Shown piece by piece: positions 12,508-32,522 of a DNA stretch of 53,298 nt. The number at the start of each line of letters is the position of its first letter. The stretch's first letter is position 1. Both the position numbers and the translations under genes were made by a program. The DNA lies in the NCBI GenBank assembly GCA_022703175.1, contig JAKLEG010000001.1, forward strand, positions 1 through 53,298, written 5' to 3'. A model generated the notes under the pieces. It did no database searches. It worked only from the letters and a program-made list of their open reading frames with translations, and was not told the DNA's origin. The DNA comes from Myxococcota bacterium (GTDB taxonomy: Bacteria; Myxococcota; XYA12-FULL-58-9).

Positions 12508-13352
12508 AAGGCCATTCCTCCACGAGCGCGGCGGGTGACAAAACGCGCGCCCAGGTTGGCTAGAAGTACCAATGTTACGAGCACCAGCGCCGCAGCCCAG
12601 GCCTGCTGGTGCCAGGCTTCGAAGGGGGACGACGCGAGGGTGAAAATCTGCAACGGCAACGCGGCCATCGGCTCGCTAAGGTTCCATGCCCAGTACTGGC
12701 TGCCGAAAGCCGTGAACAGCAGTGGCGCGGTCTCACCGGCTGCGCGTGCCACTGCCAACATGATGCCTGTGGCCACGCCAGGCAGTGCGCTCTTGAGCGT
12801 CACCGAGAGGGTCACCCGCCACGCAGGTAGACCCAACGCCAACCCAGCTTCGCGCAAGTGTATCGGCACGAGCCGCAACAGCTCCTCGGTGCTGCGCGTG
12901 ATCGTGGGGAGCATCAACACGGCCAACGCCAAAGCGCCAGCAAACGCCGAAAAGCCATGCATCGGCATCACCACGGCGGTGTAGACAAACACGCCCACCG
13001 CAATGCTCGGCGCCCCGGCCAACACGTCGGCCACAAAGCGCACGATCTGGACAAAACGGCTCTTGCCGCCCTCCGCAAGCGCGATGCCAGCCAAGATCCC
13101 CAAGGGCATGGAGAGCAAGAGCGCCACGCCCACCATGATACCGGTTCCAAGCAGCGCTTGGCCGACGCCACCACCCACTTCGCCAAAAGGCTTGGGCAGC
13201 TCAGTGAACAGCGCGAAGGAAAGCCCGCGGGCGCCGTGACTGACGAGCCAAACCAACACGCTGACGAGCGGCACCAAGGCCAACAGCGTTGCCAGGCCAC
13301 ATAGGCCGCGGCCCAAGCGATCGACCAGGCGCCTATGCCGAAAGAGACTCAC
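12504..13352 (-). CDS. pstA: phosphate ABC transporter permease PstA
   Basis: Six-TM permease with the EAA-loop-like [14 protein letters not shown]. Overlaps pstC and pstB by 4 bp. Operon position supports the call. Confidence 0.9.
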
Positions 13353-14308: not shown

Positions 14309-14315
14309 GATCGAC

Positions 14316-15338: not shown

Positions 15339-15385
15339 CGCTGAACCTCCTGCAGGCTTTGTGGGGTTCAGGATGACGTGGTTGT

Positions 15386-15403
15386 GTGACAACCAGGTGA
15401 CAA
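15386..15403 (-). promoter_or_regulatory. Pho-box-like direct repeat (TTGTCAC-N4-TTGTCAC) upstream of pstS
   Basis: The minus strand reads TTGTCACctggTTGTCAC: two identical 7-mers with an 11-bp period. They lie about 48 nt upstream of the pstS ATG, in the gap between the phoR stop (15417) and pstS. Geometry matches the E. coli PhoB box (CTGTCAT-N4-CTGTCAT). Confidence 0.5.
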
Positions 15404-15416
15404 GTCGGCAACGAGT

Positions 15417-17186: not shown

Positions 17187-17878
17187 GAGTCGACCTTTGC
17201 AGGCGCTTGAAAGCGATAGCCAATGCCGCGCACCGTTTCGATGTAACTCCCCGCGACACCTAGTTTTTCGCGCAGACGCTTAATGTGGGTATCCACCGTA
17301 CGAGTGGTGATGTCGGCGTGAATCTCCCAAACGTCAGCCAACAAAACCTCGCGGCTTTGTACCCGCTCGCCGCGCTCATACAACGTAAGCAGGAGCTTGA
17401 ACTCCAGGGCCGTGAGGGGGACCTCGGTGCCCGCGACAATCACTCGGTGCGCGGCGCGCTCAAGGGTGAGCTCCCCCACCCTGATACACTCGGCGTCGGG
17501 GGGAGCTTGGCTTGTGCGCCTGAGCACCGCCTCAATGCGCAGCAGCAACTCGCGCACGCTGAACGGCTTGACCACGTAATCTTCGGCTCCCAGCTCAAAA
17601 CCCAACACCCGATCGATCTCTTCGCCTTTGGCGGTGAGGAACAGCACCGGAATGGCCTGGGTGCGCAGCTCGCGCTTCAATGCTTTGCAGACGTCGAGGC
17701 CCGAGCCATCGGGCAACATCAAGTCGAGCAGCAGCAACTGTGGCGGCGTACGACGGGCCTGGGCCAAACCAGCGGCGGCGGTGCCCGCACATTCTACCAG
17801 GTGGCCGGCCTGCCGCAGGTTGTAGGCAAGCAGCGTTTGTAGATCCGGCTCATCTTCGATCACCAGGATGCGGGCCAT
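17183..17878 (-). CDS. phoB: OmpR-family response regulator PhoB-like
   Basis: Receiver motifs MARILVIEDE, LLLLDLMLPD and KPF, followed by a winged-helix output domain (LTALEFKLL, RTVDTHIKRLREKL, VRGIGYRF). Confidence 0.85.
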   Translation of the reverse strand: MARILVIEDEPDLQTLLAYNLRQAGHLVECAGTAAAGLAQARRTPPQLLLLDLMLPDGSGLDVCKALKRELRTQAIPVLFLTAKGEEIDRVLGFELGAEDYVVKPFSVRELLLRIEAVLRRTSQAPPDAECIRVGELTLERAAHRVIVAGTEVPLTALEFKLLLTLYERGERVQSREVLLADVWEIHADITTRTVDTHIKRLREKLGVAGSYIETVRGIGYRFQAPAKVDS

Positions 17879-17989
17879 AAGGCCTTGCTACTCTTGGCAG
17901 TAAGCCTTCCACAAGGGGCAAAGCGTCAACGTGGTTTCGTGGACGCTGCTTGACTGACTGCCAAACGCTGGCCAAAGGTAAGACCCATT

Positions 17990-18262
17990 ATGACAAACCT
18001 GGATCTGATCCAGCGCGAGAACACTGTACTCCGCGACCAACTCGCCGCGTTGCGTACCCACCTGGCCAACGAACGAACCCTGTTGGCCTATGTACGCACG
18101 GGCCTCGCCTGTTTCGTCACCGGTTTGGGCGGCCTACATCTACTCGAATCGTCGGGGTGGCTCGTGGTGGCCTGGGGTTTGGTCGGCTGCGGCCCTACCC
18201 TTTGGGCATTCGGCGCGTGGCGCTTCGCGCGTTGTCGACGTCTGCTGGCGCAAACACCATGA
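17990..18262 (+). CDS. DUF202 (YidH-like) small membrane protein
   Basis: LANERTLLAYVRTGLA matches the DUF202 signature, followed by two more hydrophobic helices. 90 aa. Ends 61 bp upstream of the A2M operon. Confidence 0.6.
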   Translation: MTNLDLIQRENTVLRDQLAALRTHLANERTLLAYVRTGLACFVTGLGGLHLLESSGWLVVAWGLVGCGPTLWAFGAWRFARCRRLLAQTP

Positions 18263-18323
18263 GGGTTGGTCGTTGCCGCGACCTTACGGATCGTTTAGGG
18301 TTTTGCCACCCGGAGGGGTTCCC

Positions 18324-19220
18324 ATGACCGCGATGATTGCTCCGCTTCTTGCCGTGGTGCTTACGGCAGCGCCCGTCAATGATCGTCAAGTCGGCGTGCC
18401 CATTGGCAAAGGCACCACCAAGCCCAGAGTCACGCTCGCAGCGCCCGCTGGCGGCTGGACCATCGATCGCATGCTGCTCGTCAAAGGCAGTATCTCGGAC
18501 GTCACCGTCGACCCGGTGGTGGTGAGCATCAACGGCGATCGCTATTTGATGCGCACCTACAACGGCGAATTTTCCCGCAAGTTCCCCGCCGCTTCTGGTC
18601 GCAATGTGGTCACGGTGATGGCCACCAACAAAGGCGGCACCGGCAGCGCCCAAGCCACCACCTATGCTGAGATGCCACCCGTCCCTCTCAAGGCCGTGCT
18701 CACCTCTGACACCGACGGCGTCTACACCGACCTGCACATCTGGGAACCCACCGACGACTGCATGACCGCCGACGGTGCGTTAAACGTAAACTCGATGGCA
18801 CATGTCTATTGGGCCAACACCGACAGCCCCTCGGGCGGCACCTTCTTCTTAAATGAGCAGGGTGGCGACTTTGACCAGCCCGCCTACGGCCCCTACCTCT
18901 ACGTGCACCGCGCCCCGCCCAAAGGCATCTACCTCATCGCCACCAACTACTGGCCCTCAGGCGACAAAGCACACACCCTCGGCACGCTGAACCTGGTGCT
19001 CTACGAAGGCACACCGCAAGAAAGCAAACGCACCGTGCGCATCCCGCTCGCCACCCCAGGCACCACCCGCGTGCTCGCCTGGGTGAACGTGGTGGAACCA
19101 GGCAAAACCATGGTCTACGTCCCCGGCCAGGACCCGATGCCCCAGGGTAATGGCTGGCCCAACAACCTAGAAACCGCCACCCAAGCGCTCAATACCGACG
19201 GCGGTGACGGCGGTTACTAA
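18324..19220 (+). CDS. DUF2135/YfaP-like secreted protein (A2M-operon accessory)
   Basis: ORF 18090..19220. The ATG at 18324 is preceded by GGAGGGG and gives signal peptide MTAMIAPLLAVVLTAAP. YTDLHIWEPTDD...HVYWANTDSPSGG...AYGPYLY recalls the DUF2135 pattern. Genomic context with A2M supports the call. Confidence 0.5.
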   Translation: MTAMIAPLLAVVLTAAPVNDRQVGVPIGKGTTKPRVTLAAPAGGWTIDRMLLVKGSISDVTVDPVVVSINGDRYLMRTYNGEFSRKFPAASGRNVVTVMATNKGGTGSAQATTYAEMPPVPLKAVLTSDTDGVYTDLHIWEPTDDCMTADGALNVNSMAHVYWANTDSPSGGTFFLNEQGGDFDQPAYGPYLYVHRAPPKGIYLIATNYWPSGDKAHTLGTLNLVLYEGTPQESKRTVRIPLATPGTTRVLAWVNVVEPGKTMVYVPGQDPMPQGNGWPNNLETATQALNTDGGDGGY

Positions 19221-19324: not shown

Positions 19325-19903
19325 ATGATGGCGGTCGCAACGATAGCGGTGGCACTGGTGGCGGTCCCCAACGAAGCGCTGTTGCGCGATGTCATCGTGC
19401 GCACGGCCCTCGCCCAAGCCCTCACCCCCGACCCCCATTGGGACCTAGCGCAGCGCGACTGCGCTGGCTTGATCCGTTTCAGCTATCGCGAGGCCTTTCG
19501 CACCCTGGCCCCAAAACAGCTGGACCTAGGCCTGTGGCACGACCGCACCGGCAAGCCGACGGCCTTTGCCGATGCTGAGACGCTGTTGGCCTACAACTTT
19601 ACATCCCTAGGTCGCGACGACGTCGCCCTCATGCACGTTCAAGGGGGCGATTTGCTCGCCTTCCGCCAAGTCGCAGGTCCCGACGAGCTTCCGGTTTATC
19701 ACCTGCTGCTGGCCGTGCGCAGCCGCGACAAAGCCAGCCACGAGTTGCAAGTTGTCTACCACCCCGGCCGTGCCGATGCCGTGGTTACCGTTGGCGCTCT
19801 CTCCGACCTCATCACTGAAGCCCCGCTTGAGTGGCATCCTGTTCCAGAAAACCCGGCCTTTCTAGGCTATTTCCGCCTTAACGAATGGATGAACCATGAC
19901 TGA
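19325..19903 (+). CDS. DUF1175/YfaT-like protein with NlpC/P60-type Cys motif (A2M-operon accessory)
   Basis: RDCAGLIRFSYREAF (Cys codon 19460-19462) followed by GDLLAF...VYHLLLAV...VVYHPG resembles the papain-like NlpC/P60 Cys...His...His layout. Size is about 190 aa. The stop overlaps the next start. Confidence 0.6.
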   Translation: MMAVATIAVALVAVPNEALLRDVIVRTALAQALTPDPHWDLAQRDCAGLIRFSYREAFRTLAPKQLDLGLWHDRTGKPTAFADAETLLAYNFTSLGRDDVALMHVQGGDLLAFRQVAGPDELPVYHLLLAVRSRDKASHELQVVYHPGRADAVVTVGALSDLITEAPLEWHPVPENPAFLGYFRLNEWMNHD

Positions 19904-21467
19904 ACCCAGCACTCCCAAACGCCCGACGTGGCTGTACATCATCATTGGGTTTTTGACCTTCGTGGTGGTGGCACTCGCCGTGGCCGCGCTGTTTGTGCAT
20001 TTGCGTCAGGGCGGATCTGGAAATGCTACCACCCCTGGCGACAGTGGCAGCACCACAACGTTGACCTCCGGTAGCGGCACCGCGGTTGAAGGTGTTCCTG
20101 AACCCACGGGCCCGGTGGCCATGGAAGTGCCCGACCTGCCACCGCGCGCCGCGGTAAGCGTGGACATCTACGATGCCGCGGGTTTAAAGGCGCTGTTTTC
20201 ACAAAACGTCTGGATGAAGGAGGTTCTCACCAAGCCGTTGGGCCAAGGCTTTGTCGGCTCGTGGGCCGGCTTCTTGGGCACGAAGGGCGAGGACTTGCGG
20301 GCAAGCTTTACTGGCACCGTCATCGATTTGTTGCTCGACCGCGTGCTCACGCAACCGTTCAGCGTGGTGTGGTTTAATGCGGCACATTCATCAGGCGTCC
20401 CGGCCGTGATCTTAGACGACCCCAACGGCGCCGCCAAAACGGCCTTCGAAGCTCTCGACACGGTGGCCGGCCGCGGCACCTTCACGGTAGAGCGTTGCCT
20501 CGCCGACAAGCCCGAAAATGTCGACGCCCAAAAACAAGTACGTGACCTAAAGGAACTTACGATCAAGCGCTGGTTGCTGGCCGACCACGCCCTCTACGCG
20601 GGCCTCGCGGGCGATCGCCTGGTCCTGGCCCGCAAAGCCTCCACGGTCCAAAATGGTCTGTGCGCGCAACGACCCAAGCTGCAACCTGCGCCAGGCGTGG
20701 CCATCACCGCGCGCCTTGAGCCCTCGGCCTTCAGCCGCGACGCCCAAGTCTTTGCCAGCGCCCTTGGCCTAAACCAGGGGCCCAACTTTGCCTTCGGCAT
20801 CGAAAACAACACATTGGTGCCGCGCGGCATCAGTGGCGACCTCGCCAACGCCGAGCGCTTGGTGAGCGGCAAGCTCTCCGGCGAAAACCTCAAAGCCATT
20901 CCAGAAGATGCACCGGTGGTGCTGGCGCTACAGCTGGCATTGCCCAAACAACTCGACCAAGACAACCTGGGCAGGTACTTCAAAGGCGAGAAATCAACGC
21001 TCACTCCGCGCCAAGTGGTGTTCGTCTGGTATCCCCACGGCGCCGTGCAAACCCCCGACCTGGCCATCTTGTGGTCGGAGAAAGCCGATAAAGCCGCGCT
21101 GGAAAGCCTGTTTGCGAGCAACCTCACCGTCGAAAACAGCCCCATCTGCGGCCAATTAGCGCTCACCTCCAACCCCACAATGACGAGCCGCATGCAAAAG
21201 AGCTGCAGCGGCAAAAGCCCCGCCATCACGCACCTCGCCGGCCCCGTGGTGAGTGGCCTGCAAGAGAACGCCTCGGTGCTATTGGGGGTCAACGTGGGCG
21301 CCCTGCTGACCCGCCTCACGACTGAATCGTTTGCCAGCGAAAATCCCAAGGCCACCTTGCCGCCCGAAATGCTCGAAGCCGAAAAACAACTCAAGGCGTT
21401 GCCGTTTATTGGGCTACGCGGCCTGATCCAAGGCCAAGCGCTGGTGCAAGGAGGGTTCCGCTCATGA
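19896..21467 (+). CDS. DUF2138/YfaA-like single-pass membrane-anchored protein (A2M-operon accessory)
   Basis: One N-terminal TM segment (WLYIIIGFLTFVVVALAVAALFV) and then about 480 aa predicted periplasmic. Assignment rests on size, topology and position immediately upstream of A2M with an ATGA overlap at 21464. No motif was verified. Confidence 0.4.
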   Translation: MTEPSTPKRPTWLYIIIGFLTFVVVALAVAALFVHLRQGGSGNATTPGDSGSTTTLTSGSGTAVEGVPEPTGPVAMEVPDLPPRAAVSVDIYDAAGLKALFSQNVWMKEVLTKPLGQGFVGSWAGFLGTKGEDLRASFTGTVIDLLLDRVLTQPFSVVWFNAAHSSGVPAVILDDPNGAAKTAFEALDTVAGRGTFTVERCLADKPENVDAQKQVRDLKELTIKRWLLADHALYAGLAGDRLVLARKASTVQNGLCAQRPKLQPAPGVAITARLEPSAFSRDAQVFASALGLNQGPNFAFGIENNTLVPRGISGDLANAERLVSGKLSGENLKAIPEDAPVVLALQLALPKQLDQDNLGRYFKGEKSTLTPRQVVFVWYPHGAVQTPDLAILWSEKADKAALESLFASNLTVENSPICGQLALTSNPTMTSRMQKSCSGKSPAITHLAGPVVSGLQENASVLLGVNVGALLTRLTTESFASENPKATLPPEMLEAEKQLKALPFIGLRGLIQGQALVQGGFRS

Positions 21468-24400
21468 TGCATCCAGAGAATCGCGGGTCGCTGCGGCAGA
21501 GCCGATACCCAGTGTTCGCCTTTGCCTTCGCCTCACTGACTCTGCTCACAAGCACCGCGTTCGCCAAACCAATCTACATCACGGTGCCCCGCTCCTATGG
21601 GACCCAAGAGCCCGTGGCCGTAGACGTGGCCTTCGCCGGCAACGAAGCGGTGGAGCTGCGGGTGCTCAAACCCAACAACCTCGACACCTACGTGCGCGAG
21701 CAGGCCAACCTGCGCCGCGCCTACGTTGCGCCCACCACCATCGTGAACCCCGGGCGACACTTGGCCCGCGGCCTGAATGCCGTGTCACATCCCGGTGAGT
21801 TCCTGCTGCGCGCGCTCGACCCGAGCTTCCGCAAAAATCTCTCGGGCACCATGCCGGCCATGCCCAGCCTGTCGGGGCGCGCACTCTCCGACTTGGATGA
21901 AGGCCAAGAGAAGCTCGTCAATATCCCTGTGGGGCTTGTGCTTGTGCGCTCCGAGTGGCTCAACCTGGATTTGGGTGGCACCGATCGCGGCTTTGACGTG
22001 CCCGGCTTTGACATGTGGAGCTCCTCCCGTTCTGGCTTCCAAGAGCGGCGTGTCACGCTCAAGCCGCTGCCCGCAGGCGTCTACGTGCTGCAACTCGTGC
22101 AAGGTCGGGTGGAAGGCCAAGTCACGCTGGTGGTGAGTGACCTTAGCGTGCAGCTCAAACAAACCGATGGCGAGATCTTGGTGCGCACCGCCGGACGTGA
22201 CCAAAAGCCTAGAAAAAACGCTGCCGTTCAAGTGTATCTCGGCGCCCAAGCCGGCCCCGGTGGCAAAACTGACGGCAACGGCGAGCTGCGCTTAAAGGTG
22301 AATGAGCCACGCTTGCTCGCGACCATCACCGACCAAGGGGACACCGCGGTCGTGGACACCGACTTCTACTCGACCTTGGCGGTGCAACCCGACGTGTTCA
22401 TCTACAGCGACCGGCCCATTTACAAGCCCGGAGATGAAATTCGCTTCCGCGGCTTGCTGCGCAAACCGGCGTCGTTCTTGGCGCAGCTATTTGCCCCCAA
22501 GGACCGCGACATGGTGGTGCGGCTTCTCACGAGCACCGGCCGCGAGATCAACACGCGCGCCAAGGTTGACGAGTTCGGTAGCTTTTACGGCAAGCTCGAT
22601 ATCCCCGACGATATCGAAACCGGCGTCGTGCGCCTGGCCGCCGAAATCGATGAGCACGACTACCAAAGCGAAGCGCGCGTGCAGGCATACGTCAAACCCA
22701 CCTTCTTTGTAGAAATGAGCACCGACCAAGATTCCATAAGCCCAGGCGACACCGTCACCGCCACGCTCAAAGCCCGCCGCTATGCGGGCGGTGTGCCGAA
22801 GGGGGCCAAGTACGAGGTGTTCTTGTATCGCACGCTGCTCACCACGCCCACCTGGGTGGACGACGCCGGTATGGGTGGGCAAGGGAGTGCGGTGACCTAC
22901 GGCACCGTGTCTACCAGCGAAGGCAAGTTGTCGGTGCCGCTCAAGCTGTATTCGAGCGTCGAGGCACGCGCAGGGACCAACAGCGAATTCAGCCACTATG
23001 ACCCTTGGGCCACCGCGGCGCTGTTCGATGACAAAGGTGAGGCCCAAATCAGCGTCGTGGTGCCGCCCTTGTCAGACGACGACAAAAAGGCGCGCCTGCC
23101 ATTCAAGTACACCCTCACGGTAAACGCCCAAGATCCCGAAGGCGCCAGCGCTGCCGTCAGCCGACCGTTCTACTACGGCGAATGCGACGTGCGTGCGCAA
23201 CTGGCCACCTCGCAAAGCTTCGTGATGCAAGACACCGAGGCCACGTTGTCCGTGCGCGCCATGACCCTTGCAGGACGCGGCTTCGGCGTGGCCCAAGGCG
23301 AAGTGCGTTACGTGCACCTAGATGCCGACGGCAAGTCGCACGAGCTGGGTAAGAAACCGTTTGCTACCGATGCCGATGGCATCTTCCGCGACCGCATCCC
23401 CACGAACAAGGTGGGCACGGTGCTTATGCAAGTGACGTTGCGCGACAAGAAAAACCGCGACACCGGCGACGAAACACGCCTGTTGGTGCTGGGCAAGGCG
23501 GGCGAAACAGTGGCCAAGGTGCCCGTGCTCACCGTGATGGCGCTGCCAAAACCAGTGGCACCCGGCGCCAAAGCTCAGCTGATTGCGTTGTTCCCAGATG
23601 GCTGGGGGCCCGCTGGCCAAAACCGCGGCTCGGTGTGGGTGACCACGAGTGGCAACGGCATCTACGACACTGAGCTTATGGAGGTCCAAGGCCAAAGCTT
23701 GGTGTACGAGTTTGAGGCCGAGCGCCGCTTTGGCAGCTCCGTGTACGCGGCCATTGCCTATCCCACCGCTAGCGGCCGTTGGGACGAACGCACGTTGGCG
23801 TTCCGTATCTTGGCCGAAGAACGCACCTTGCGCGTGCGCATCGAGCCGCAAAAGCCCGAACTGCCCCCCAACGCCGAGCAAACGCTGCAAATCAGCGTGG
23901 TAAATCACCAGGGCCAAGGTGTTACGGCACAGCTTTCAGTAGGCGTGGTGGACAAGGCGATCTACGCGCTACAGACCGAATTCCGCCCCAAAATCCTCGA
24001 TTTCTTCTACCCGCTCGTGCGCAACAACGTCATGAGCTTCTACTCTGCAGAGTTTCAAGGCTACGGCTACGGCGAAATGCTGGCGCGGCTGCGGGCCCGT
24101 ACCAAAGGGGCCGAGTTCGCCGCGGTAAAGCCGCCCAAGGTAAAACAAAAGGATGAGGACACCGCTTTCTGGCGTCCCAACGTGGTCACCGATGGCTCCG
24201 GCAACGCCCGCGTGACGTTCAAGCTACCCGGCAACAGCACCTTGTGGGTGGTCACGGCCGTGGCCGCCGACGCCGCAGGGCGCTTTGGCGAAGGCACCGC
24301 GGAGTTCCAAAGTCGCGCCGGACTTACGATGGTCGCAAGCATGCCGCAATTCTTGCGCGTGGGAGATACCGCGCAAGGCAGCGTGCGCTTAGCCACCGGC

Positions 24401-26215
24401 CCCAAAGAGAAAATCCGTAGCGTTGCCGTCGAGGTTGGTACCAGCGATGGGCTCAAAGCCGACACGGTTCATCAAAAGGTCGAGCTCAAAGCCAAAGACG
24501 AAGAGCTGGTGAGCTTCGCGCTCACTGCCAGTGCGGTTGGGCCCGGCAACATCGGCATGCGCCTGACCAGCGATGACGACACGCGCGTGGACAAGCGCAG
24601 CTTGCGCGTGCTGCCCGCAGCAGTGCCGGAGCGCGTCATGGTAAGCGCGTTGAATGGTGGCGAGCTGAAGCTACAACTCCCCAAGGGCGCCGAGGTCCAA
24701 GCGGTGGAGTTGACGCTCTTGCCCACCGCCATCGCCGCGGCCGTGGCGAGTGTACGCGATATGCTTACTTACCCTTACGGCTGCTTAGAACAATTGGTCG
24801 CCACCACGGTACCTAACATCGCGGTGGTGCGTACCCTGAAAACCGTGGGGGCCTTTGGCAAGCTCGACCCCGAATCGCAGGCGTTGCTCGAAGAGGCCAA
24901 CTCCAGAGCCGTGCAAGGGGTGCAGCGCATCCTCGCATTGGCCACGAAAGGCGGCGGTTTTACTTGGTTTTCTGGTTACGACGAAGCGAGCCTGCCGCTC
25001 ACGTTGATTGCCGTGGATGGCCTGACTTACGCGACCGAAGCGGGGCTTCTCGATCGCAACGATGCGCGGCTCACCGCTGGCGCTGCGTACCTCGCCAAAG
25101 CTGAAGACTTGCCGTTTGCGCTCGACGCCACGCGCACCTACGTCCTCGCACGTTTGAATGGCAAAGAGGAAGCGGCGCGGGTGCGGGCTCTCCTGGAGAA
25201 TGCGCCTGCGGATGATATCTACAGCACCGCGTTGGCCATTTTGGCCGCCGAGGCTGCCGATGCCCTGGCCGAAAACAGTCTCAAGGCACGGGTGACCACG
25301 CTTCTTCACCAAAACCAACAAAACCTGGCGCGGGTGGCCGACTACCGCTTGGACGATGCCTTTTGGCGCTACCCGATGTCGCGCGTAGGTTTGGGCGCAA
25401 TCGTCGCACATGCAGCCTCTCTGGGCAGCCGCGACCTCCCCACAGCGCGCACCCGTTTCATCAACGCACTGGGCGACTTGGGCAATGTCTCCACGTTCGA
25501 CCAAAGCACGTTGTTGCTGCACAACTTGTGGCTGCTCACCGAAGAAGCCAAAGCACTGGGTGCGCTCACGCCACCTGCGGTGGAAACCAGCCAGGGCAAG
25601 GTGACCCTCAAACCCCGTGGCACCGGCCTATACGCCACGCTCGACAAAGCCGCCCAGAGCGCCAAGGTGGCTAGCTTCGACGGCGTTGCCATGCTCACGG
25701 CTGACGTGCTGTTGCCGCTAAGTGAGGTAGTACCGAAAGCCCAGGGCATGAGCCTCAAGCGTAGCTATTGGCTCGTGCGCCCCGACGGCCGCGAGCCGCT
25801 CAAGGATGGGGATACAGTGACGCAGGGTCAAATGGTCTTCGTAGAATTGGAGCTCGACGCCGACAGCGACGATTGGCGCAGCTCCCGCCGCTCGGCCTAC
25901 TACGTGCTCGAAGACGCGCTCCCGGCCGGCTTTGAGCCGATGATTGAAGACAAAAAGTGGCGCGCCAAACCCTACGATTTGCCGCTCACGCATGAAGCAC
26001 TCAAGCAACGCGCGCTGTCCCCCGACAAGGCGCGTTTCTTTTTTGAGGAGCCCGCAATCTGGAGCCGCTCGCCGCGCAGCATCGGCTACCTGATGCGCGC
26101 GCAGTTCCCAGGCACCTACGCCATCCCGCCGGCCCGCGTGACTGACATGTATGCCCCCAAAATCACAGCACAAACCGGTGCTGCAACCCTGTCTATCCGG
26201 GCATCCAAGAAGTAG
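21464..26215 (+). CDS. bacterial alpha-2-macroglobulin family protein (1583 aa) with CLEQ thioester motif
   Basis: MG-domain signature DRPIYKPGDEIRFRGLLR. Thioester block LTYPYGCLEQLVATT (C-L-E-Q = 24782..24793). C-terminal receptor-domain-like YYVLEDALPAGFEP. The signal peptide ends TSTAFA-KP with no lipobox Cys. Confidence 0.9.
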   Translation: MMHPENRGSLRQSRYPVFAFAFASLTLLTSTAFAKPIYITVPRSYGTQEPVAVDVAFAGNEAVELRVLKPNNLDTYVREQANLRRAYVAPTTIVNPGRHLARGLNAVSHPGEFLLRALDPSFRKNLSGTMPAMPSLSGRALSDLDEGQEKLVNIPVGLVLVRSEWLNLDLGGTDRGFDVPGFDMWSSSRSGFQERRVTLKPLPAGVYVLQLVQGRVEGQVTLVVSDLSVQLKQTDGEILVRTAGRDQKPRKNAAVQVYLGAQAGPGGKTDGNGELRLKVNEPRLLATITDQGDTAVVDTDFYSTLAVQPDVFIYSDRPIYKPGDEIRFRGLLRKPASFLAQLFAPKDRDMVVRLLTSTGREINTRAKVDEFGSFYGKLDIPDDIETGVVRLAAEIDEHDYQSEARVQAYVKPTFFVEMSTDQDSISPGDTVTATLKARRYAGGVPKGAKYEVFLYRTLLTTPTWVDDAGMGGQGSAVTYGTVSTSEGKLSVPLKLYSSVEARAGTNSEFSHYDPWATAALFDDKGEAQISVVVPPLSDDDKKARLPFKYTLTVNAQDPEGASAAVSRPFYYGECDVRAQLATSQSFVMQDTEATLSVRAMTLAGRGFGVAQGEVRYVHLDADGKSHELGKKPFATDADGIFRDRIPTNKVGTVLMQVTLRDKKNRDTGDETRLLVLGKAGETVAKVPVLTVMALPKPVAPGAKAQLIALFPDGWGPAGQNRGSVWVTTSGNGIYDTELMEVQGQSLVYEFEAERRFGSSVYAAIAYPTASGRWDERTLAFRILAEERTLRVRIEPQKPELPPNAEQTLQISVVNHQGQGVTAQLSVGVVDKAIYALQTEFRPKILDFFYPLVRNNVMSFYSAEFQGYGYGEMLARLRARTKGAEFAAVKPPKVKQKDEDTAFWRPNVVTDGSGNARVTFKLPGNSTLWVVTAVAADAAGRFGEGTAEFQSRAGLTMVASMPQFLRVGDTAQGSVRLATGPKEKIRSVAVEVGTSDGLKADTVHQKVELKAKDEELVSFALTASAVGPGNIGMRLTSDDDTRVDKRSLRVLPAAVPERVMVSALNGGELKLQLPKGAEVQAVELTLLPTAIAAAVASVRDMLTYPYGCLEQLVATTVPNIAVVRTLKTVGAFGKLDPESQALLEEANSRAVQGVQRILALATKGGGFTWFSGYDEASLPLTLIAVDGLTYATEAGLLDRNDARLTAGAAYLAKAEDLPFALDATRTYVLARLNGKEEAARVRALLENAPADDIYSTALAILAAEAADALAENSLKARVTTLLHQNQQNLARVADYRLDDAFWRYPMSRVGLGAIVAHAASLGSRDLPTARTRFINALGDLGNVSTFDQSTLLLHNLWLLTEEAKALGALTPPAVETSQGKVTLKPRGTGLYATLDKAAQSAKVASFDGVAMLTADVLLPLSEVVPKAQGMSLKRSYWLVRPDGREPLKDGDTVTQGQMVFVELELDADSDDWRSSRRSAYYVLEDALPAGFEPMIEDKKWRAKPYDLPLTHEALKQRALSPDKARFFFEEPAIWSRSPRSIGYLMRAQFPGTYAIPPARVTDMYAPKITAQTGAATLSIRASKK

Positions 26216-26257: not shown

Positions 26258-28465
26258 GTGACTTGGCTTACGCTTTGGCTGCTCCTTAGCGCACCTCCTG
26301 AGTTCATCGCGGGGGAAGGCGTCGCTGTAGAGCCGGAGTTGTTGACCCTGGCCCACGACAGTTGGGCGGAGCTTGCGCGCCTGTTTGTCCAAGCCACTGG
26401 CAGCGATGCGCAGTCGCCTACCCTCGTTCGTTTGGAGACGCTGCCGCCTGGGGCTCGTTTGGGCGGCGCTTCGGAGCTGGGCCGCATCAGGTTGCACCCA
26501 GCCTTGTTGACGCGGCGCGACCCTAACCTCGGGCTGGTGTTAAAACATGAGCTGGCGCACCAACTGTTGTTGGTGAGCTGCCCCGCGGCGACTGATGATC
26601 GCTTATTTCATGAGGCGTTTGCTGTAGCCGCAAGCGGCGAGCTTGGCGCCTGGGTCGATGGACCCTATCTGTCGACCCCGCAGGCGGCACGTTTGTTGAG
26701 CCAAAGCCAGGAGCTCGACACTCCCGATCGCCGCCGGGCATTGAGTCGCCTGTTGAGCGAGAGTGAACCCGATGTGGGTGGCCTGCCCAAGGTGCTGCGT
26801 CGCCGATTGAACGCCTGCGCGAGCCACGCACGCTGGCAACAACCGCTCACCGTGGCGGAGCTAACCGCCGGAAACGCAACAGAGACTGCCGATGCCTGGC
26901 TGGTATTAAATCGCCACTCGGGCGAAGTGTTGGAGAGCCGCGGCGCGGCCAACTTGCCGATGCCGTTTGGTTCAATCCTCAAACCGTTCGTCGCCGCCGC
27001 GGGCGTCGCTGCGCCTAGCCTAGCCACTGAGCCGAGCCGCGACGTTTGGGCCTGCGGCGACGCGCTACCCAAAACCATGGGGCTGAAAGAAGCGCTGAGC
27101 CGCTCCTGCAATGGCTATTTCCTCGACTGGAACGATCCGGTGGCGCGCACGTTTGGCAGCTTTGGCCCGTTATTTCTGGCGTTGGGGCTGAGCCGCTTGC
27201 CACACGAAATGGCCGAAGCCATTGGCGCCAAACCGACGCTCACGTTATCGCCGTGGGCCGTGGCGCAGGCGTACCGCACGTTGGCGCTTTCGCGTCCAGA
27301 TGTCATGACATGGCTGCAGCGCACCGCCCAGGTAGGCACACTCAAAGGGCTGCCCAGCTCAGCTGCACTTATGCGCTTCAGCGTCAAAACAGGTACGGTG
27401 CGCGACGCTAGCTCCAAACCACGCGTCGGTTGGCTCGTGGCGGTGACTCCTGACCTGGTGGCGGTGATGACCCAACACGAACGCGTGCCCCGCGAGTTTG
27501 CCGACGAATTTCTGGTCGCCTTGCAAGGCTTTGTCGAGCGCCGATCAGAACTCGCCGTCACCACTCAGGTTTTTGGACTTGTGCCGAGTGCCCAGGTGCA
27601 AGCTGAGTGCCGCGGGATTGGCGTGGTGGCCACTGCAACGTTGCAGCTGCTTGAAGCACAATCGCAGTCGCTTGTAAGCGCCGTGGAGCGTGGGCCCTTG
27701 TTATGCCTGGGGGCACCCTGGCTGATTCAGTTCCCCAAAAGCATCGCGCTCGCCAGGCAATATGCCGGCAGCTTTTCACTTTTGCCCTTGCCCCCGCCCA
27801 CGGTACAGGCGCCGGGCACGGCCAAACAACAACGGGCTCGGCGGGGCTCGGAGCTGGCCTTCACCACATCGCTTGCGCGTTATGCCGTAGGTGTCGTGAG
27901 GTCCGAGGATGCCTCGGCCAAGGGCGAGGCGCGCACCGCGCTGTTGCAGGTGGCGGCTCACAACGTTTTTCACAGTCGCCACCCCGAGCGCCCCGTGTGT
28001 GACACGACCCATTGTCAGGTGTTTCTGGGCACAGTCGCCCCAGAGCCGCGCGACACCGAAAGCCTCGCCAAGGACTGGCTCGTCGAGTTGGGTTGGCTGC
28101 TGTTCTCGCAAGGGGGCGAGGAAGCATGGCATGCGTCACGGTCACTGGGGAGTGTGACGGCGCTCTTGGGTGAAAACCCTTCGAACCTGCATTTCGATGG
28201 TGAGCGGGTCTATTACCAACGCACCGTAAAACATGGCGACAGCCTGGTGGATGAGGCGGCAAGCCTGTCGTGCGAGTTGCTGCGCAGCCCGTTGCGCTTA
28301 CCTAGCTGCCCAACGCAGGCCACGTTCACACCTGAGCAGGTGGAATTTTCGGGTCGCGGCAAGGGGCACGGCCAAGGGTTGGACGTAGAGTGGGCCAAGC
28401 GAAGCGGGTTGGATGCGAAGGCAATTCTGCACACCGCGTATGGGGCGCTTGCGAAAGAGGACTAA
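26258..28465 (+). CDS. A2M-operon terminal gene (YfaQ/DUF2300 position): HExxH motif + penicillin-binding (SxxK/SxN/KTG) transpeptidase-like domain + SpoIID-like domain
   Basis: GTG start at 26258. KHELAH at 26546-26560. PFGSILKPF (SILK 26972-26983). ALSRSCNGYF (SCN 27104-27112). SVKTGTV (KTG 27386-27394). CDTTHCQVF (27998-28018). GRGKGHGQG...ILHTAYG near the C-terminus (His 28367). Confidence 0.6.
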   Translation: MTWLTLWLLLSAPPEFIAGEGVAVEPELLTLAHDSWAELARLFVQATGSDAQSPTLVRLETLPPGARLGGASELGRIRLHPALLTRRDPNLGLVLKHELAHQLLLVSCPAATDDRLFHEAFAVAASGELGAWVDGPYLSTPQAARLLSQSQELDTPDRRRALSRLLSESEPDVGGLPKVLRRRLNACASHARWQQPLTVAELTAGNATETADAWLVLNRHSGEVLESRGAANLPMPFGSILKPFVAAAGVAAPSLATEPSRDVWACGDALPKTMGLKEALSRSCNGYFLDWNDPVARTFGSFGPLFLALGLSRLPHEMAEAIGAKPTLTLSPWAVAQAYRTLALSRPDVMTWLQRTAQVGTLKGLPSSAALMRFSVKTGTVRDASSKPRVGWLVAVTPDLVAVMTQHERVPREFADEFLVALQGFVERRSELAVTTQVFGLVPSAQVQAECRGIGVVATATLQLLEAQSQSLVSAVERGPLLCLGAPWLIQFPKSIALARQYAGSFSLLPLPPPTVQAPGTAKQQRARRGSELAFTTSLARYAVGVVRSEDASAKGEARTALLQVAAHNVFHSRHPERPVCDTTHCQVFLGTVAPEPRDTESLAKDWLVELGWLLFSQGGEEAWHASRSLGSVTALLGENPSNLHFDGERVYYQRTVKHGDSLVDEAASLSCELLRSPLRLPSCPTQATFTPEQVEFSGRGKGHGQGLDVEWAKRSGLDAKAILHTAYGALAKED

Positions 28466-29331
28466 GCAATACTTGAGGCTTCGAGGTCTGATGCGCCACG
28501 CCGGCCGCGCACGCAGCCGACGTGCATGGGCACAGTGATCGGGTTTTTGACGGTAACATCAAGAAGCTTCAGCGCCGTCTCTTTCAACTCGGTGTTCTTC
28601 CCTAACCACAACGGCAGAAGTTGCTCGGCAAACAGGCGTTGGTTGGAGAGGGGCGGTGACAGCGTCAGCTCGATGGTATCGCGCCGTACCTCGGCCTCGA
28701 CGGCACCGCTCTTGATCATGTCTTCGCGCCAGGAATCGGCGTCTACCAACTCGGGTGGCTGCTCGATAAGGGCATGAAACACGGGATCGTGCTCATGGCC
28801 CTTGAGGCTCGGTCCCAGCGCCGTGGCCAGCTCGGCAAAGGTCGCGCGTAACGGTGCGGCAATGAGCAAAAGCCCGCCCGGGCGCAATACCCGTAGCGCC
28901 GCCCGAATCACCGGCCGCGCAGGTTGCAGCTGTTCGCGCGCCAGTGCCGCCCACACCAGGTCGAAGACGCCCGGAGCAAAGGGCAGGCGCGTGCGCAAAT
29001 GCTTACGGGGAAACACCACCCTGCGCAACTCGCGGCTCAACTGCTCATGGAAGACACGCAACTGTGCCCGGTCTTCGGAGAGCGCCACAATGCGCGAGCC
29101 TTTGGGCAGGCGCCGGTGGATCGTAAGCGTCGAGCCGCCAGTGCCGCAGCTTAAATCGAGGGCATTGATAGGCTGCTCGTAGCGGTCGAGGTTGCGCTCG
29201 ACGATGTGCACAAAATGATGTTGGTAACGCTCGACCGGATCTTCGGAGAGGTCGGCCAACAGGCCGCTACGCACGACCCGCACGGTACCCTCAATGCGAG
29301 GCGGCTCTGGGGCAGCGCTCTCCGGGCTCAT
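28462..29331 (-). CDS. class I SAM-dependent methyltransferase
   Basis: Motif I LDLSCGTGGSTL, motif II-like FDLVWAA, and post-I/III LRPGGLLLIA. Its stop codon overlaps the convergent 26258..28465 stop (CTAA). Confidence 0.75.
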   Translation of the reverse strand: MSPESAAPEPPRIEGTVRVVRSGLLADLSEDPVERYQHHFVHIVERNLDRYEQPINALDLSCGTGGSTLTIHRRLPKGSRIVALSEDRAQLRVFHEQLSRELRRVVFPRKHLRTRLPFAPGVFDLVWAALAREQLQPARPVIRAALRVLRPGGLLLIAAPLRATFAELATALGPSLKGHEHDPVFHALIEQPPELVDADSWREDMIKSGAVEAEVRRDTIELTLSPPLSNQRLFAEQLLPLWLGKNTELKETALKLLDVTVKNPITVPMHVGCVRGRRGASDLEASSIA

Positions 29332-29413
29332 GCGGCGAGACTAGAGAGTTGAGCTGTGCGAGTCAATCTGGGTGTCGCCCATTTGGCGGTTGACACATGC
29401 TCACGGGTGGATA

Positions 29414-29438
29414 TAATGAACAAAGAGTCATTATTCAT
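29414..29438 (+). promoter_or_regulatory. candidate TetR operator / 25-nt repeat copy 1 (TAATGA-N8-TCATTA + TTCAT)
   Basis: TAATGAACAAAGAGTCATTATTCAT abuts the tetR ATG. It has 6-bp inverted arms with an 8-nt spacer, and 19/25 positions are identical to 30066..30090. Confidence 0.35.
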
Positions 29439-30029
29439 ATGCGCTACAAAGAACCAGGTAAAGAGACCGCCATCCTGCACGCCGCCATTAAGGTGTTTGC
29501 CGAACAGGGCTATCACAAAGCCCAAATCTCGCGCATCGCAGAACATGCCGGCGTCGCCACCGGCACGGTGTATCTCTACTTCGGCAACAAGCGCGACATT
29601 TTGCTTAAAATTTTCGGGGAGATGTGGGCCGTCGTCGCCAAGCAGTGGGCAGCCATTGCGAATGATACGGGGCTTACGGCCGAAGGTCGCCTAGATGCAC
29701 TCATCGACGTGGTGTTCGACGTGTGTGCACCACAGCCTGAGTTGGCGATTCTGTTGGCCAACGAACACAGTTTGCTGTTGCACAACCACCGCGAAATATT
29801 CCCCAAAGAATACGACCAAGCCCTTGAAATTGCACAAAAAATAATCATCGATGGGGTCACTAAAGGGGTCTTCGATAAGGACGCCGATCTGACTTTTTTG
29901 CGCCACTTCATCATTGGCGGCATGCGCGAAGCACTGCACCAGTGGAGCATCAATCCTAAAGAAATCCAGCTTGGCGACATTCGCCGCCACGCCAAACGCA
30001 CTCTCAAGCACGGCATCCTGAGCCACTAA
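29439..30029 (+). CDS. TetR/AcrR-family transcriptional regulator
   Basis: The ATG at 29439 gives MRYKEPGKETAILHAAIKVFAEQGYHKAQISRIAEHAGVATGTVYLYFGNKRDIL, a canonical TetR HTH. It is the first gene of the efflux operon, like cecR/ybiH upstream of ybhGFSR. Confidence 0.85.
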   Translation: MRYKEPGKETAILHAAIKVFAEQGYHKAQISRIAEHAGVATGTVYLYFGNKRDILLKIFGEMWAVVAKQWAAIANDTGLTAEGRLDALIDVVFDVCAPQPELAILLANEHSLLLHNHREIFPKEYDQALEIAQKIIIDGVTKGVFDKDADLTFLRHFIIGGMREALHQWSINPKEIQLGDIRRHAKRTLKHGILSH

Positions 30030-30046
30030 CCGAAGGATTTTCCACC

Positions 30047-31525
30047 ATGCCGAGCAGTTTAGTTAAAATGACAAACGCTTCATTATTCATTTCAGTTCTG
30101 ACACTGCCTGGGTTGGCAAGCGCCCAAGAGCTGAGCCTGGCCGATGCGGTGACCCAAGCACTCACCCACAACGAGGCGCTGCGCCAAGCCGACTTGCGGC
30201 TCGAAACCAAAAGCGACGAGGCCGGCGCCGCCCTGGGTAACTTCCTGCCCACGATTTCGATCACGGGCGCCTACTCGCACTTGGATGACCCGCTCATCAT
30301 CAACTTGGACCCAATCCGGGATGGCATGATCCAACTGCAATCCCAAAACATGACCGAGTTCGCCAACAGCTACACCGTCATGCAAGGCGGCGCCCCCTTG
30401 AGCGCCGAACAACGCGCAGGCCTCACGAGCCAAAACGCCGCCAAGCTCGACGCCGTCATGCCACACTTCGAAAAAACCCTGAAAGAACAAGACAGCGTCA
30501 CCATCACCCTCACCGCAGTGCAACCGCTTTTCACCGGCGGCAAACTGTACGCCGGACTTATGGCCGCCAAAGCCGAAGAACGCGCAGCCCAGGCCGACAA
30601 AGAACGCACCCAAAACGAAGTCGTACGCGAAGCCATCAACAACTATCTGGCGGTGGCACTGCTGAACCAAGTGCTGGAAGTGCGCCAAGCCGTGCTCGTA
30701 GGCATGCAAAGCCATCGCGATGACGCCCTCAAACTCAAAGCCACCGGACTCATTGCCGAAGTGCAGGTGCGCCGCGCCGAAGTCGCCGTGGCCGAGGCCG
30801 AGCGCGCGCTCTTAGATGACTCACTCAAACAAGAGCTGGCCATGCTTTCACTCAAGCGCACGTTAGGACTACCCGAAACCGCGCCCCTTGTCGTACGCGA
30901 GCGCCTGAGCTTTCACCCCTACAGCACCGCATTGGCGGATTGCCTGCAAGAAGCGCAGGCCACCCAGCCGCTGTTGAAATTGGTCGACGCCAAAGCCTTG
31001 GCCGTGGCGCAAAAGGTGGTGGCAAGCCGCGCCGAATTCTTGCCACAGGTGGCCGCGTTCGGCCGCTATGAGCTGTACCGCAAAGATCTGTCGGCCCTCG
31101 ACCCGAACTGGGTGGTGGGTGCACAACTTTCCATCAACCTGTTTTCGGGCCTGAAGGATTATCACCGCGTCAGCGCCGCCGAACACCAAGCCGCCGAAGT
31201 GGCAAGCCTGCGCGCCGATACCGAACGCAGCCTGTCGTTGTGGGTCAACCGCGCGCATCGAGATGCCGAAGGGGCCGCTAGCCGTTTCCAAAAACTCGAT
31301 GCCAACCGGACCCTCGCAACCGATGCCCTGCGCTTGTCCGAAGAGCGTTTCCACAGTGGCTTTGGCACGTCACTCGAAGTGGTGGACGCCCGTCTGGCGG
31401 CCCAGCGCATCGACGTCGACCGCCTGTTGGCGCTGTTTGATTACTATCGGGCACTCAGCGACCTAACCGTCGCGATGGGTCACCCGGAACGCCTCGTGTC
31501 CCTCTTTGCGGCTTTGGAGAACTAA
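30047..31525 (+). CDS. TolC-family outer-membrane efflux protein
   Basis: Signal peptide ...LPGLASA-QE. Two OEP repeats with typical coiled-coil heptads and Y/L-rich turns (YYRALSDL at the end). Operon context. An alternative start at 30068 is possible. Confidence 0.85.
   Translation: MPSSLVKMTNASLFISVLTLPGLASAQELSLADAVTQALTHNEALRQADLRLETKSDEAGAALGNFLPTISITGAYSHLDDPLIINLDPIRDGMIQLQSQNMTEFANSYTVMQGGAPLSAEQRAGLTSQNAAKLDAVMPHFEKTLKEQDSVTITLTAVQPLFTGGKLYAGLMAAKAEERAAQADKERTQNEVVREAINNYLAVALLNQVLEVRQAVLVGMQSHRDDALKLKATGLIAEVQVRRAEVAVAEAERALLDDSLKQELAMLSLKRTLGLPETAPLVVRERLSFHPYSTALADCLQEAQATQPLLKLVDAKALAVAQKVVASRAEFLPQVAAFGRYELYRKDLSALDPNWVVGAQLSINLFSGLKDYHRVSAAEHQAAEVASLRADTERSLSLWVNRAHRDAEGAASRFQKLDANRTLATDALRLSEERFHSGFGTSLEVVDARLAAQRIDVDRLLALFDYYRALSDLTVAMGHPERLVSLFAALEN
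30066..30090 (+). promoter_or_regulatory. 25-nt repeat copy 2 (AATGA-N8-TCATT + ATTCAT) at the 5' end of the TolC-like gene
   Basis: AAATGACAAACGCTTCATTATTCAT shares 19/25 positions with copy 1, including an identical 11-mer TCATTATTCAT. It overlaps the alternative start ATG at 30068. Confidence 0.3.
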
Positions 31526-31529
31526 AACC

Positions 31530-32522
31530 ATGAACAAAAAGACCATTATTTTCCTGTTGTTACCGATTAGTGCCGCGCTCACCGCCGGAGCCGTATTGGC
31601 GCGCCAAGCGGCGGCCACAGGCCCCGAGGTGATCACCGGCACCGTCGAGACCACCGAAATCGACTTGGGCTCCAAGGTGCCCGGTCGCGTGGCAGAGGTC
31701 CGGGTGCACGAAGGCGACCCAGTGAAACGCGGGGAGGTGCTGGCGGTGATTGCGAGCCCAGAGCTCGAAGCCAAAGTTGCCCAAGCGAAAAGCGTGGTCG
31801 AAACCGCGCAGGCCAAAGCCCGGTTGGTTACAAAGGGCGCACGCAGCGAAGAGCGCGAGGCAGCGCTGCGCTTGTATCTGCAAGCCAAGCATGGCGCCGA
31901 CCTAGCGCAAAAGACGTTTGTGCGCGTGGAGTCGATGTTCAAGGCGGGTGTGCTCTCCGAGCAAGAACGCGATCAGGCATTCACGCAGGCCGAAGCCGCC
32001 CGCGAACAGATGGATGCTGCCAAGGCCAAAGCCGATATGGCCGAACATGGTGCCCGCGCCGATGAGATCTTGGCCGCCCAGGCCGCCTTGCGCCAAGCCG
32101 AAGGCGCCTTGGCCGAGGTGGAGTCGTATCAGCGCGAGCTGAACCTCGTAAGCCCGTTGGATGCCGTGGTGCGCGAGCGCATTGTCGACCCCGGTGAGCT
32201 GGTGGCCACTGGTTACCCCGTGTTGACGCTGTTGGATTTGAACGACGCCTGGGTGGTGTTGCAACTACGCGAAGATCGCTTGGCGGGTATCAAGCAAGGT
32301 GACGCGCTCACGGGCGTGGTGCCAGCGTTGGGCAACAAGGCGGTGCATTTCACGGTGAGCCAAATCGCGGCGATGGCCGATTTTGCCACCTGGCGGCCGA
32401 CTCACCAAAAAGGTGAGTTCGACCTGCGTACCTTTGAAGTTCATCTCCGCCCCGATGCACCGGTTCCCGGTTTGTTGGGTGGCATGACCGTCAATGTCGA
32501 GTTGGCTGCACGCGCGGAGTAG
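31530..32522 (+). CDS. HlyD/YbhG-type membrane fusion (periplasmic adaptor) protein
   Basis: ATG at 31530 after GGAGA. TM anchor, lipoyl-like GRVAEVRVHEGDPVKRGEVLAVI, a long coiled-coil hairpin, and beta-barrel VSPLDAVV...VDPGELV. Confidence 0.85.
   Translation: MNKKTIIFLLLPISAALTAGAVLARQAAATGPEVITGTVETTEIDLGSKVPGRVAEVRVHEGDPVKRGEVLAVIASPELEAKVAQAKSVVETAQAKARLVTKGARSEEREAALRLYLQAKHGADLAQKTFVRVESMFKAGVLSEQERDQAFTQAEAAREQMDAAKAKADMAEHGARADEILAAQAALRQAEGALAEVESYQRELNLVSPLDAVVRERIVDPGELVATGYPVLTLLDLNDAWVVLQLREDRLAGIKQGDALTGVVPALGNKAVHFTVSQIAAMADFATWRPTHQKGEFDLRTFEVHLRPDAPVPGLLGGMTVNVELAARAE

Follow-up and report, generated by a model that had tools for sequence, protein, structure and literature searches.

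A putative three-domain peptidoglycan-remodeling protein encoded beside a thioester alpha-2-macroglobulin in Myxococcota

What does a protein that resembles several enzymes at once do beside a bacterial alpha-2-macroglobulin (A2M)? The question is raised by a stretch of 53,298 nucleotides (nt) from a Myxococcota bacterium (GTDB lineage XYA12-FULL-58-9; assembly GCA_022703175.1, contig JAKLEG010000001.1, positions 1 to 53,298; here called the window), in which the last gene of an A2M operon (26258 to 28465, GTG start) encodes a putatively exported multidomain protein of 735 amino acids (aa). The gene lies on the plus strand, as do all features described below unless otherwise stated. Macroglobulin operons of this Yfa/Mag type were reportedly noticed in 2004, and their function is said to have been enigmatic since. 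Recent work on the Yfa and Mag systems has yielded only protection against type VI secretion system (T6SS) toxins that target peptidoglycan and a change in cell width upon loss of YfaQ, and the degenerate motifs of the Escherichia coli and Pseudomonas proteins hamper the testing of biochemical hypotheses. In the family described here, the expected catalytic residues of three enzyme folds are intact and the gene is coupled to an A2M with a thioester, which makes the idea of trapping plus cell wall repair directly testable. We consider it probable that the protein is an exported peptidoglycan-remodeling or repair enzyme of the YfaQ/MagE class which works with the A2M and is apparently catalytically competent.

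Conserved motifs and domain folds of the protein

A homolog search over 5.8 billion proteins recovered 176 relatives of about 740 aa, all of them from Myxococcota, one sharing 87% identity with the protein and the others 52% or less. When 1.84 billion cluster representatives were searched with a profile, 971 proteins were found at an E value of 1e-3 or lower. Conservation was assessed in 39 orthologs (43 to 52% identity) and in a wide alignment of 69 full-length members reaching down to 23% identity; fractions over 69 given below refer to the latter. The original prediction, made by reading the translation, had noted an HExxH motif, an SxxK/SxN/KTG triad, and SpoIID-like blocks in this gene. 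All of these were found where it had placed them, with spacings of 44 and 94 residues within the triad, and instead of the poor conservation that it had named as grounds for refutation, the motifs are family-wide, being kept in the 69 relatives. Across the 39 orthologs the motif residues are invariant, T378 nearly so. Chance occurrence was assessed with 20,000 shuffles of the protein, with the triad spacing set generously. An ordered SxxK/SxN/K[TS]G triad arose in 0.17% of the shuffles and HExxH in 2.7%; no shuffle had both. The conservation of the sequence, itself read from alignments, is stronger evidence than the shuffle test that the motifs are real.

The middle of the protein (residues ~206 to 429; 26873 to 27544) is a compact transpeptidase-type, or acyl-serine transferase, domain of the penicillin-binding protein (PBP) kind. 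A full-length AlphaFold2 (AF2) model built from the 39-sequence alignment (predicted local distance difference test [pLDDT], 88.8; predicted template modeling score [pTM], 0.80) was compared with the PDB by using Foldseek, and the transpeptidase and DD-peptidase domains of PBP1b, PBP3, PBP5/6, PBP1a, and PonA1 were matched with E values of 1e-8 to 1e-6, a probability of 1.0, and template modeling (TM) scores on the target of up to 0.52, bearing out the fold that had been proposed from the motifs. The SxxK motif, S239-I-L-K242 within GSILKPF (26972 to 26983), supplies the putative nucleophile Ser and general-base Lys; both are invariant (69/69), S239 stands at the N terminus of the modeled helix 238 to 248, and the family profile aligns this segment, as GStlKPF, with the active-site GSAIKPF of gonococcal PBP2 (PenA). 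The SxN motif, S283-C-N285 (27104 to 27112), has its Ser in 69/69 and its Asn in 42/69 members and falls between the modeled helices 276 to 281 and 285 to 290, and the KTG motif, K377-T-G379 (27386 to 27394), lies on strand 375 to 382, with K and G kept in 69/69 and T or S at position 378 in 69/69. As placed by the model, the three motifs are in the canonical PBP positions. The motif forms GSxxKP and KTGT are typical of high-molecular-weight (HMW) PBPs.

The fold and the GSxxKP/SxN/KTGT triad are thus common to this domain and to the transpeptidase domains of HMW PBPs (PF00905; PBP1b, PBP3, PenA/PBP2, PBP1C), whereas the compact 44/94 spacing and the lack of a glycosyltransferase, a pedestal domain, or a PBP-type membrane anchor set it apart from them. 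The Pfam Transpeptidase model reached 16.2 bits on the isolated domain (E value of 0.006), below its cutoff of 22.1, and PF00905 matched 7 of the 39 orthologs at an E value of 1 or lower, the best being 8.5e-4. A role as a beta-lactamase or a BlaR-type sensor was considered and set aside: the protein has no membrane or signaling partner domain, and its best fold matches are to HMW PBP and DD-carboxypeptidase domains. One subgroup, 24 of the 69 members, carries S-D-[T/S] in place of S-C-N and keeps both SxxK and KTG; the A2M partners of this subgroup carry GCTEQ.

The C-terminal part of the protein (residues ~516 to 735; 27803 to 28462) is a SpoIID/LytB-like domain. Matches to PBPs had filled the whole Foldseek list, and a deletion model was therefore made from residues 1 to 203 and 430 to 735, the construct lacking residues 204 to 429 being aligned over the full-length homologs (pLDDT, 89). 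With this model, SpoIID of Clostridioides difficile (5i1t; E value of 2.6e-4) ranked first and SpoIID of Bacillus anthracis (4rwr; E value of 1.1e-3) next, both with a probability of 1.0, in agreement with the SpoIID-like fold suggested earlier. The three best matches of the family profile among PDB sequences were likewise SpoIID proteins (E values of 0.011 to 0.068), and the profile aligned both conserved blocks, GVVxxE/CxxxHCQ and GxGHGxG, with E550 falling on the Glu of 5i1t and 4rwr. Pfam SpoIID matched 29 of the 39 orthologs at an E value of 1 or lower (best, 2.9e-4); on the protein itself it reached 15.2 to 17.7 bits against a cutoff of 23, and on the isolated domain it gave a subthreshold E value of 0.006.

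In published descriptions of SpoIID, the motif GVVxxEMP/S contains the catalytic Glu, and the zinc site is formed by H134, C140, H145, and C146 of the C. difficile enzyme, within the pattern yCxdxxHCQ. These catalytic and zinc-binding features map exactly onto G545VVRSE550 and H575-x5-C581DTTH585C586Q of the protein. E550, within GVVRSED (27905 to 27907), is the equivalent of E101 of C. difficile SpoIID and is present in 69/69 members. The zinc-site match, H575-x5-C581-D-T-T-H585-C586-Q587 (27980 to 28018), has C581 and C586 in 69/69 and H585 in 60/69, and H575 is invariant among the 39 orthologs; the pattern yCxdxxHCQ with its upstream His belongs only to the clostridial subtype of SpoIID. 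The C-terminal block GxGHGxGM/L is represented by G699-R-G-K-G-H704-G-Q-G-L708 (28352 to 28381), in which H704 and glycines G699, G701, G703, and G707 are kept in 69/69 and G705 in 63/69, and which the profile aligns with GYGHGVGM of 5i1t and GFGHGVGM of 4rwr. The protein therefore has the fold, GVVxxE, H-x5-C-x3-HCQ, and GxGHGxG in common with the SpoIID/LytB family (PF08486; 5I1T, 5TXU, 4RWR) but differs from SpoIID in being fused to two other enzyme-like domains, in being unconnected with sporulation, and in being encoded in an A2M operon. Between this domain and the PBP-like domain lies a beta-rich region (residues ~430 to 515; 27545 to 27802), recognized from the secondary structure of the AF2 model, which may belong to the SpoIID-like module as its "arm" or may be a linker with a beta-sandwich fold; the SpoIID Foldseek alignment covers 274 columns, and the region also has weak matches to HSP20-like beta-sandwiches.

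The N-terminal domain (residues ~14 to 205; 26297 to 26872) is probably a gluzincin-like (M1/M61-like) metallopeptidase-like domain carrying HExxH-x17-E, an assignment weaker than the other two. In the Foldseek search with the deletion model, the M61 aminopeptidase 7xyo was matched with an E value of 0.019 and a probability of 0.96, and M1 (APN1), EryP, M60, and abylysin were also retrieved, those of M1, M60, and abylysin with E values of 0.06 to 1. The profile of the isolated domain had a single match in the PDB, the M1 tricorn factor F3, with a nonsignificant E value of 2.4; it aligned HEIAHQW...NESFA of factor F3 with HELAHQ...HEAFA of the protein. Pfam SprT-like (zinc motif) gave a subthreshold E value of 0.003 on the same domain. 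The HExxH motif first noted in the translation thus appears, from Foldseek and the factor F3 alignment, to belong to a real gluzincin-like domain. Its putative zinc ligands and catalytic Glu, H97-E98-L-A-H101 (26546 to 26560), are invariant (69/69), as is E119 in LFHEAFA (26612 to 26614), which is aligned with NESFA of factor F3 and is the putative third zinc ligand, 17 residues after H101. The zinc signature of M1 enzymes has the consensus HELAHQW...NEGFA, with HExxH-x18-E. The HELAHQ...HEAFA of the protein resembles the HExxH...E signature of the M1 and M61 gluzincins, but the protein has only a catalytic core of ~190 aa and a spacing of 17 rather than 18. A conserved GxMEN exopeptidase motif was not found; the only candidate, G-A-S-E-L at residues 70 to 74, is unconserved in the orthologs.

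When the domains were searched singly, the Pfam family expected for each was its top or only weak match. A single-sequence phmmer search against the PDB returned one match to a repeat protein, which was judged spurious.

The protein begins with a short hydrophobic segment, MTWLTLWLLLSAP (26258 to 26296), that is read from the sequence as a presumed export signal. Export is suggested by this hydrophobic N terminus, by homologs that carry classical signal peptides or a lipobox (for example, STLGGC in one of them), and by ten Cys residues that are invariant across the 39 orthologs.

The operon and its relationship to YfaQ and MagE

The gene is the largest open reading frame (ORF) of its region and starts 42 nt past the gene for a 1,583-aa A2M (21464 to 26215; Pfam MG2, A2M, A2M_BRD, TED, and bMG10). 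Minus-strand ORFs that overlap it have no support and were taken as noise of a GC-rich sequence. Its stop codon shares 4 nt with the 3' end of a class I SAM methyltransferase gene that runs convergently (28462 to 29331, minus strand), leaving no space for an intergenic terminator. Upstream of the A2M gene lie a gene for a YfaP/MagA/MagF-like protein with DUF2135 and Glucodextran_B domains (18090 to 19220; Pfam), a DUF1175/MagC-like (NlpC/P60-like) gene (19325 to 19903; Pfam E value of 2e-26 and alignment with YfaT), and, in the position of MagB/YfaA, a gene (19896 to 21467) whose 523-aa product has a transmembrane helix at its N terminus. The 523-aa protein is kept at the same position across Myxococcota; BLASTP against E. 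coli YfaA (DUF2138) found no similarity and there was no Pfam match, so that position and the transmembrane helix are all that equate it with MagB/YfaA. NCBIfam models returned nothing for the operon genes. The A2M has a signal peptide, no lipobox, and an intact thioester motif, YPYGC1107LEQ (24782 to 24793).

Bacterial A2Ms are divided, according to a 2013 paper in mBio, into class 1, which have a lipobox and a CLEQ thioester and are encoded next to pbpC, and class 2, which lack the Cys and are encoded in a six-gene operon. Judged from its sequence, the A2M of the window is a member of neither class, having an operon of the class 2 type, a thioester, and no lipobox.

The linkage of the two genes is conserved. 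The same five-gene order was found in a deltaproteobacterial metagenome-assembled genome, in Myxococcus hansupus, and around a distant relative of 762 aa; in the locus of this last protein, which belongs to the S-D-T subgroup, the YfaP-like and MagC-like proteins are fused as one gene. A scan of one genome per GTDB species yielded 80 loci from Myxococcota, Bdellovibrionota, Syntrophobacteraceae and other Desulfobacterota, and Methylococcales. Upstream sequence of 5 kb or more was available for 64 loci; in 45 of them an A2M gene lay directly upstream on the same strand, and all 45 of these A2Ms carry YP[YHFW]GCxEQ. Three apparently full-length copies had no A2M gene within 6 to 7 kb upstream, and five loci matched residues ~424 to 729 only, corresponding to the beta-rich and SpoIID-like part; the family thus also occurs outside the A2M context.

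The known systems closest to this arrangement are the E. coli operon, in the order yfaA (DUF2138), yfaT (DUF1175), yfaS (A2M), yfaQ, and yfaP (DUF2135), and the Pseudomonas aeruginosa operon magABCDEF, in which MagE (PA4488; COG5445; 61.7 kDa) follows the A2M MagD and in which MagF and MagA both belong to COG4676. As in those operons, genes for DUF2135 and DUF1175 proteins accompany the A2M gene of the window, and the gene that directly follows it encodes a protein that resembles YfaQ/MagE in combining a SpoIID-like part with a transpeptidase-like part nearer the N terminus and in being presumably exported. The appropriate comparator in Pseudomonas is therefore MagE and not MagF, with which the original prediction had proposed to compare it. 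The slot that the gene fills in this Yfa/Mag-type operon is that of YfaQ/MagE, of which it appears to be a fuller version.

E. coli YfaQ (b2226) scores above the Pfam SpoIID threshold and contains two DUF2300 repeats (residues 84 to 205 and 412 to 532), the first of which is the stretch from SCG to KTW; the YfaQ family keeps GS59xWK62, S107CG, K194TW, and the SpoIID Glu. When the two full families were aligned with hhalign, SxxK, SCN/SCG, KTG/KTW, and the SpoIID Glu were collinear over 292 columns, with a weak probability of 21% and an E value of 1e-3. Alignment of the PBP-like domain with YfaQ residues 20 to 250 gave a moderate probability of 72% and an E value of 3.4e-5, with SxxK aligned to GSxWK. 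Compared with YfaQ, the protein of the window is ~190 aa longer and has an extra N-terminal gluzincin-like HExxH domain; canonical SxN and KTG motifs stand in the places of the SCG and KTW of YfaQ; and the protein has a clostridial-type zinc site and a GxGHGxG block of which YfaQ shows no evident counterpart. The A2M partners differ as well, that of the window carrying a thioester motif which YfaS and MagD lack. In this family the thioester goes together with intact PBP motifs and an extra peptidase domain, and none of the three is found in the Yfa system of E. coli or the Mag system of P. aeruginosa.

The domain combination had been put forward as undescribed, but two of its domains were already known together. 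A 2025 preprint predicts a transpeptidase-like N-terminal part and a SpoIID-like C-terminal part for YfaQ and reports that cells deleted for yfaQ are wider and show a phenotype profile linked to mepK, mepS, and nlpI. Many of the orthologs appear at NCBI under the name "SpoIID/LytB domain-containing protein," and a single UniRef entry is called "Penicillin-binding protein." Given the preprint, Pfam, and these database names, the pairing of a transpeptidase-like with a SpoIID-like domain had already been described. What is new is the third, N-terminal gluzincin-like domain, the canonical PBP motifs together with a complete SpoIID zinc site, and the thioester A2M partner. Literature searches returned no paper on MXAN_0583 to MXAN_0586 of Myxococcus xanthus, of which MXAN_0586 is the ortholog of this gene, and no paper that combined "YfaQ" with "alpha-2-macroglobulin."

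YfaQ (yfaQ, 3149 to 4798 of the E. coli locus) has an HExxH motif of its own, an invariant C-terminal D-x-x-HEYLH-LAF...DE at residues 516 to 539 in the second DUF2300 repeat. Aligned by hhalign with the N-terminal HExxH region of the protein, it gave a weak match (E value of 0.04 over 35 columns). HEYLH was considered as a possible relocated copy or remnant of the N-terminal metallopeptidase-like domain, but Pfam assigns its region to the second DUF2300 repeat.

Peptidoglycan editing and alternative roles

We hypothesize that, after export to the periplasm, this one polypeptide would present three hydrolase- or transferase-like modules. In the gluzincin-like module, H97, H101, and E119 would be the zinc ligands, with E98 serving as the base. 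The PBP-like module would form an acyl-serine intermediate with stem peptides ending in D-Ala-D-Ala and could act as a DD-transpeptidase, a carboxypeptidase, or an endopeptidase. The SpoIID-like module would be a lytic transglycosylase, with E550 as the catalytic residue and a structural zinc at H575, C581, H585, and C586, that cuts glycan strands and does so by preference on those stripped of peptides. All three modules would work on one substrate, peptidoglycan, the first two being directed at its peptides and the third at its glycan, and would trim and re-knit a damaged wall. Attacking proteases or enzymes that degrade the wall would be caught by the thioester A2M encoded next to it.

This reading of the protein as a peptidoglycan editor is drawn from what has been reported for its Mag, Yfa, and SpoIID relatives and from the invariance of the catalytic residues. 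The mag operon shields P. aeruginosa from the peptidoglycan-targeting T6SS effectors VgrG3 and Tae1, loss of magE reduces MagD and prevents its processing, and the MagC/DUF1175 protein binds peptidoglycan, although it has been described as inactive. SpoIID enzymes cut glycan strands, prefer denuded ones, and act downstream of peptide-removing enzymes, and homologs of SpoIID cut glycan strands outside sporulation. The general link between A2Ms and cell wall maintenance that had been drawn for this locus also agrees with the literature.

A number of observations weigh against this reading. The equivalent parts of the studied relatives look noncatalytic (SCG and KTW in YfaQ; the inactive MagC), and MagE was found in the cytoplasmic fraction of P. 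aeruginosa. At ~220 aa the PBP-like domain is unusually small, so that parts required for catalysis may be missing from it, and the N-terminal leader is short and without a basic residue. The gluzincin assignment depends on a Foldseek E value of 0.019 and a profile E value of 2.4 that is not significant. No Pfam or NCBIfam model matched the protein at its curated threshold, Pfam DUF2300 (PF10062) had no match at an E value of 10 or lower in either the whole protein or the isolated domains, and homology to YfaQ over the whole protein is weak (probability of 21%; E value of 1e-3).

Some of the same observations could be explained if the protein were a pseudo-enzyme scaffold, its three modules serving only to bind peptidoglycan and to anchor or position the A2M complex without catalysis. 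DUF1175/MagC would be a precedent for such an inactive peptidoglycan binder, the SCG and KTW motifs of YfaQ are degenerate, SpoIID/LytB domains can be enhancers of amidases rather than enzymes, and the PBP-like domain is truncated in comparison with real PBPs. However, Ser, Lys, KTG (with T or S at position 378), the SpoIID Glu, and HExxH with its distal Glu are all kept over 69 sequences at ~23% identity. Such invariance is the expected product of selection on catalysis, and binding alone would rarely keep all of these residues in three domains. We regard the scaffold explanation as unlikely, though it is the strongest of the competitors.

It is still less likely that the protein is a maturation or activation factor for the A2M, in which the HExxH domain, alone or together with targeting modules, would process the A2M or its trapped prey and peptidoglycan would be a docking surface. 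In its favor, P. aeruginosa deleted for magE has much less MagD, which is no longer processed to the 100-kDa form; the argument for this role also cites a strict coupling of the gene to an A2M gene; and the metallopeptidase-like domain is confined to those lineages in which the A2M has retained its thioester. However, MagE and YfaQ have no N-terminal gluzincin-like domain, and yet MagE affects MagD; no stable complex of MagD and MagE was found; and it would go unexplained why the catalytic residues in the PBP-like and SpoIID-like domains are conserved.

The original prediction had placed the gene in the partner position of a class 1 locus, as a novel peptidoglycan-enzyme fusion replacing PBP1C beside a thioester A2M. 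The A2M does have the CLEQ hallmark of class 1, PBP1C is like this protein in being genetically coupled to a thioester A2M, and both have a transpeptidase-type domain. The placement did not survive comparison of the loci: the operon is of the Yfa/Mag type, with class 2 accessory genes (DUF2135, DUF1175, and the membrane protein), the A2M lacks a lipobox, the partner lacks a glycosyltransferase domain, and the gene occupies the YfaQ slot and is weakly homologous to YfaQ. We consider replacement of PBP1C very improbable. That the motifs are chance occurrences in an unrelated protein or in a miscalled ORF, as their shortness and the want of a curated hidden Markov model above threshold might suggest, is already refuted by the rarity of the triad among shuffles, the existence of at least 176 full-length homologs, the confident AF2 model, and an independent fold match for each domain.

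A tentative, rather doubtful extension of the peptidoglycan-editing reading is that Myxococcota, Bdellovibrionota, and some other lineages possess a third and probably ancestral type of A2M system, in which a thioester A2M and a three-in-one active peptidoglycan enzyme would form a trap-and-repair immunity of the cell envelope. The thioester-less Yfa and Mag operons of E. coli and Pseudomonas would then be degenerate derivatives from which the thioester had disappeared together with the metallopeptidase domain and the SxN and KTG motifs. The ortholog MXAN_0586 belongs to M. xanthus, a genetically tractable organism.

The family is found mainly in predatory bacteria, which are bathed in their own lytic enzymes, and this suggests a role in self-protection. 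In M. hansupus, three genes for secreted trypsin-family proteases (12344 to 19189 of that locus) lie directly downstream of the orthologous operon, an arrangement not present in the window; these genes hint at self-protection of the organism against its own proteases.

Two minor features of the window remain to be described. The YfaP-like ORF encodes 376 aa, against 296 to 300 aa in its orthologs, with the excess of ~80 codons lying at the 5' end, and since its first residues are unlike a signal peptide, its true start is probably further downstream. On either side of the operon, the upstream divergent flank (13349 to 17878, minus strand) encodes an OmpR-type response regulator, a sensor kinase, and a PstS-like binding protein with a permease (PhoR/PhoB/Pst-like), and the downstream flank (29397 to 32522) encodes a TetR regulator and an OEP/HlyD efflux pair; these flanking genes look unrelated to the operon.

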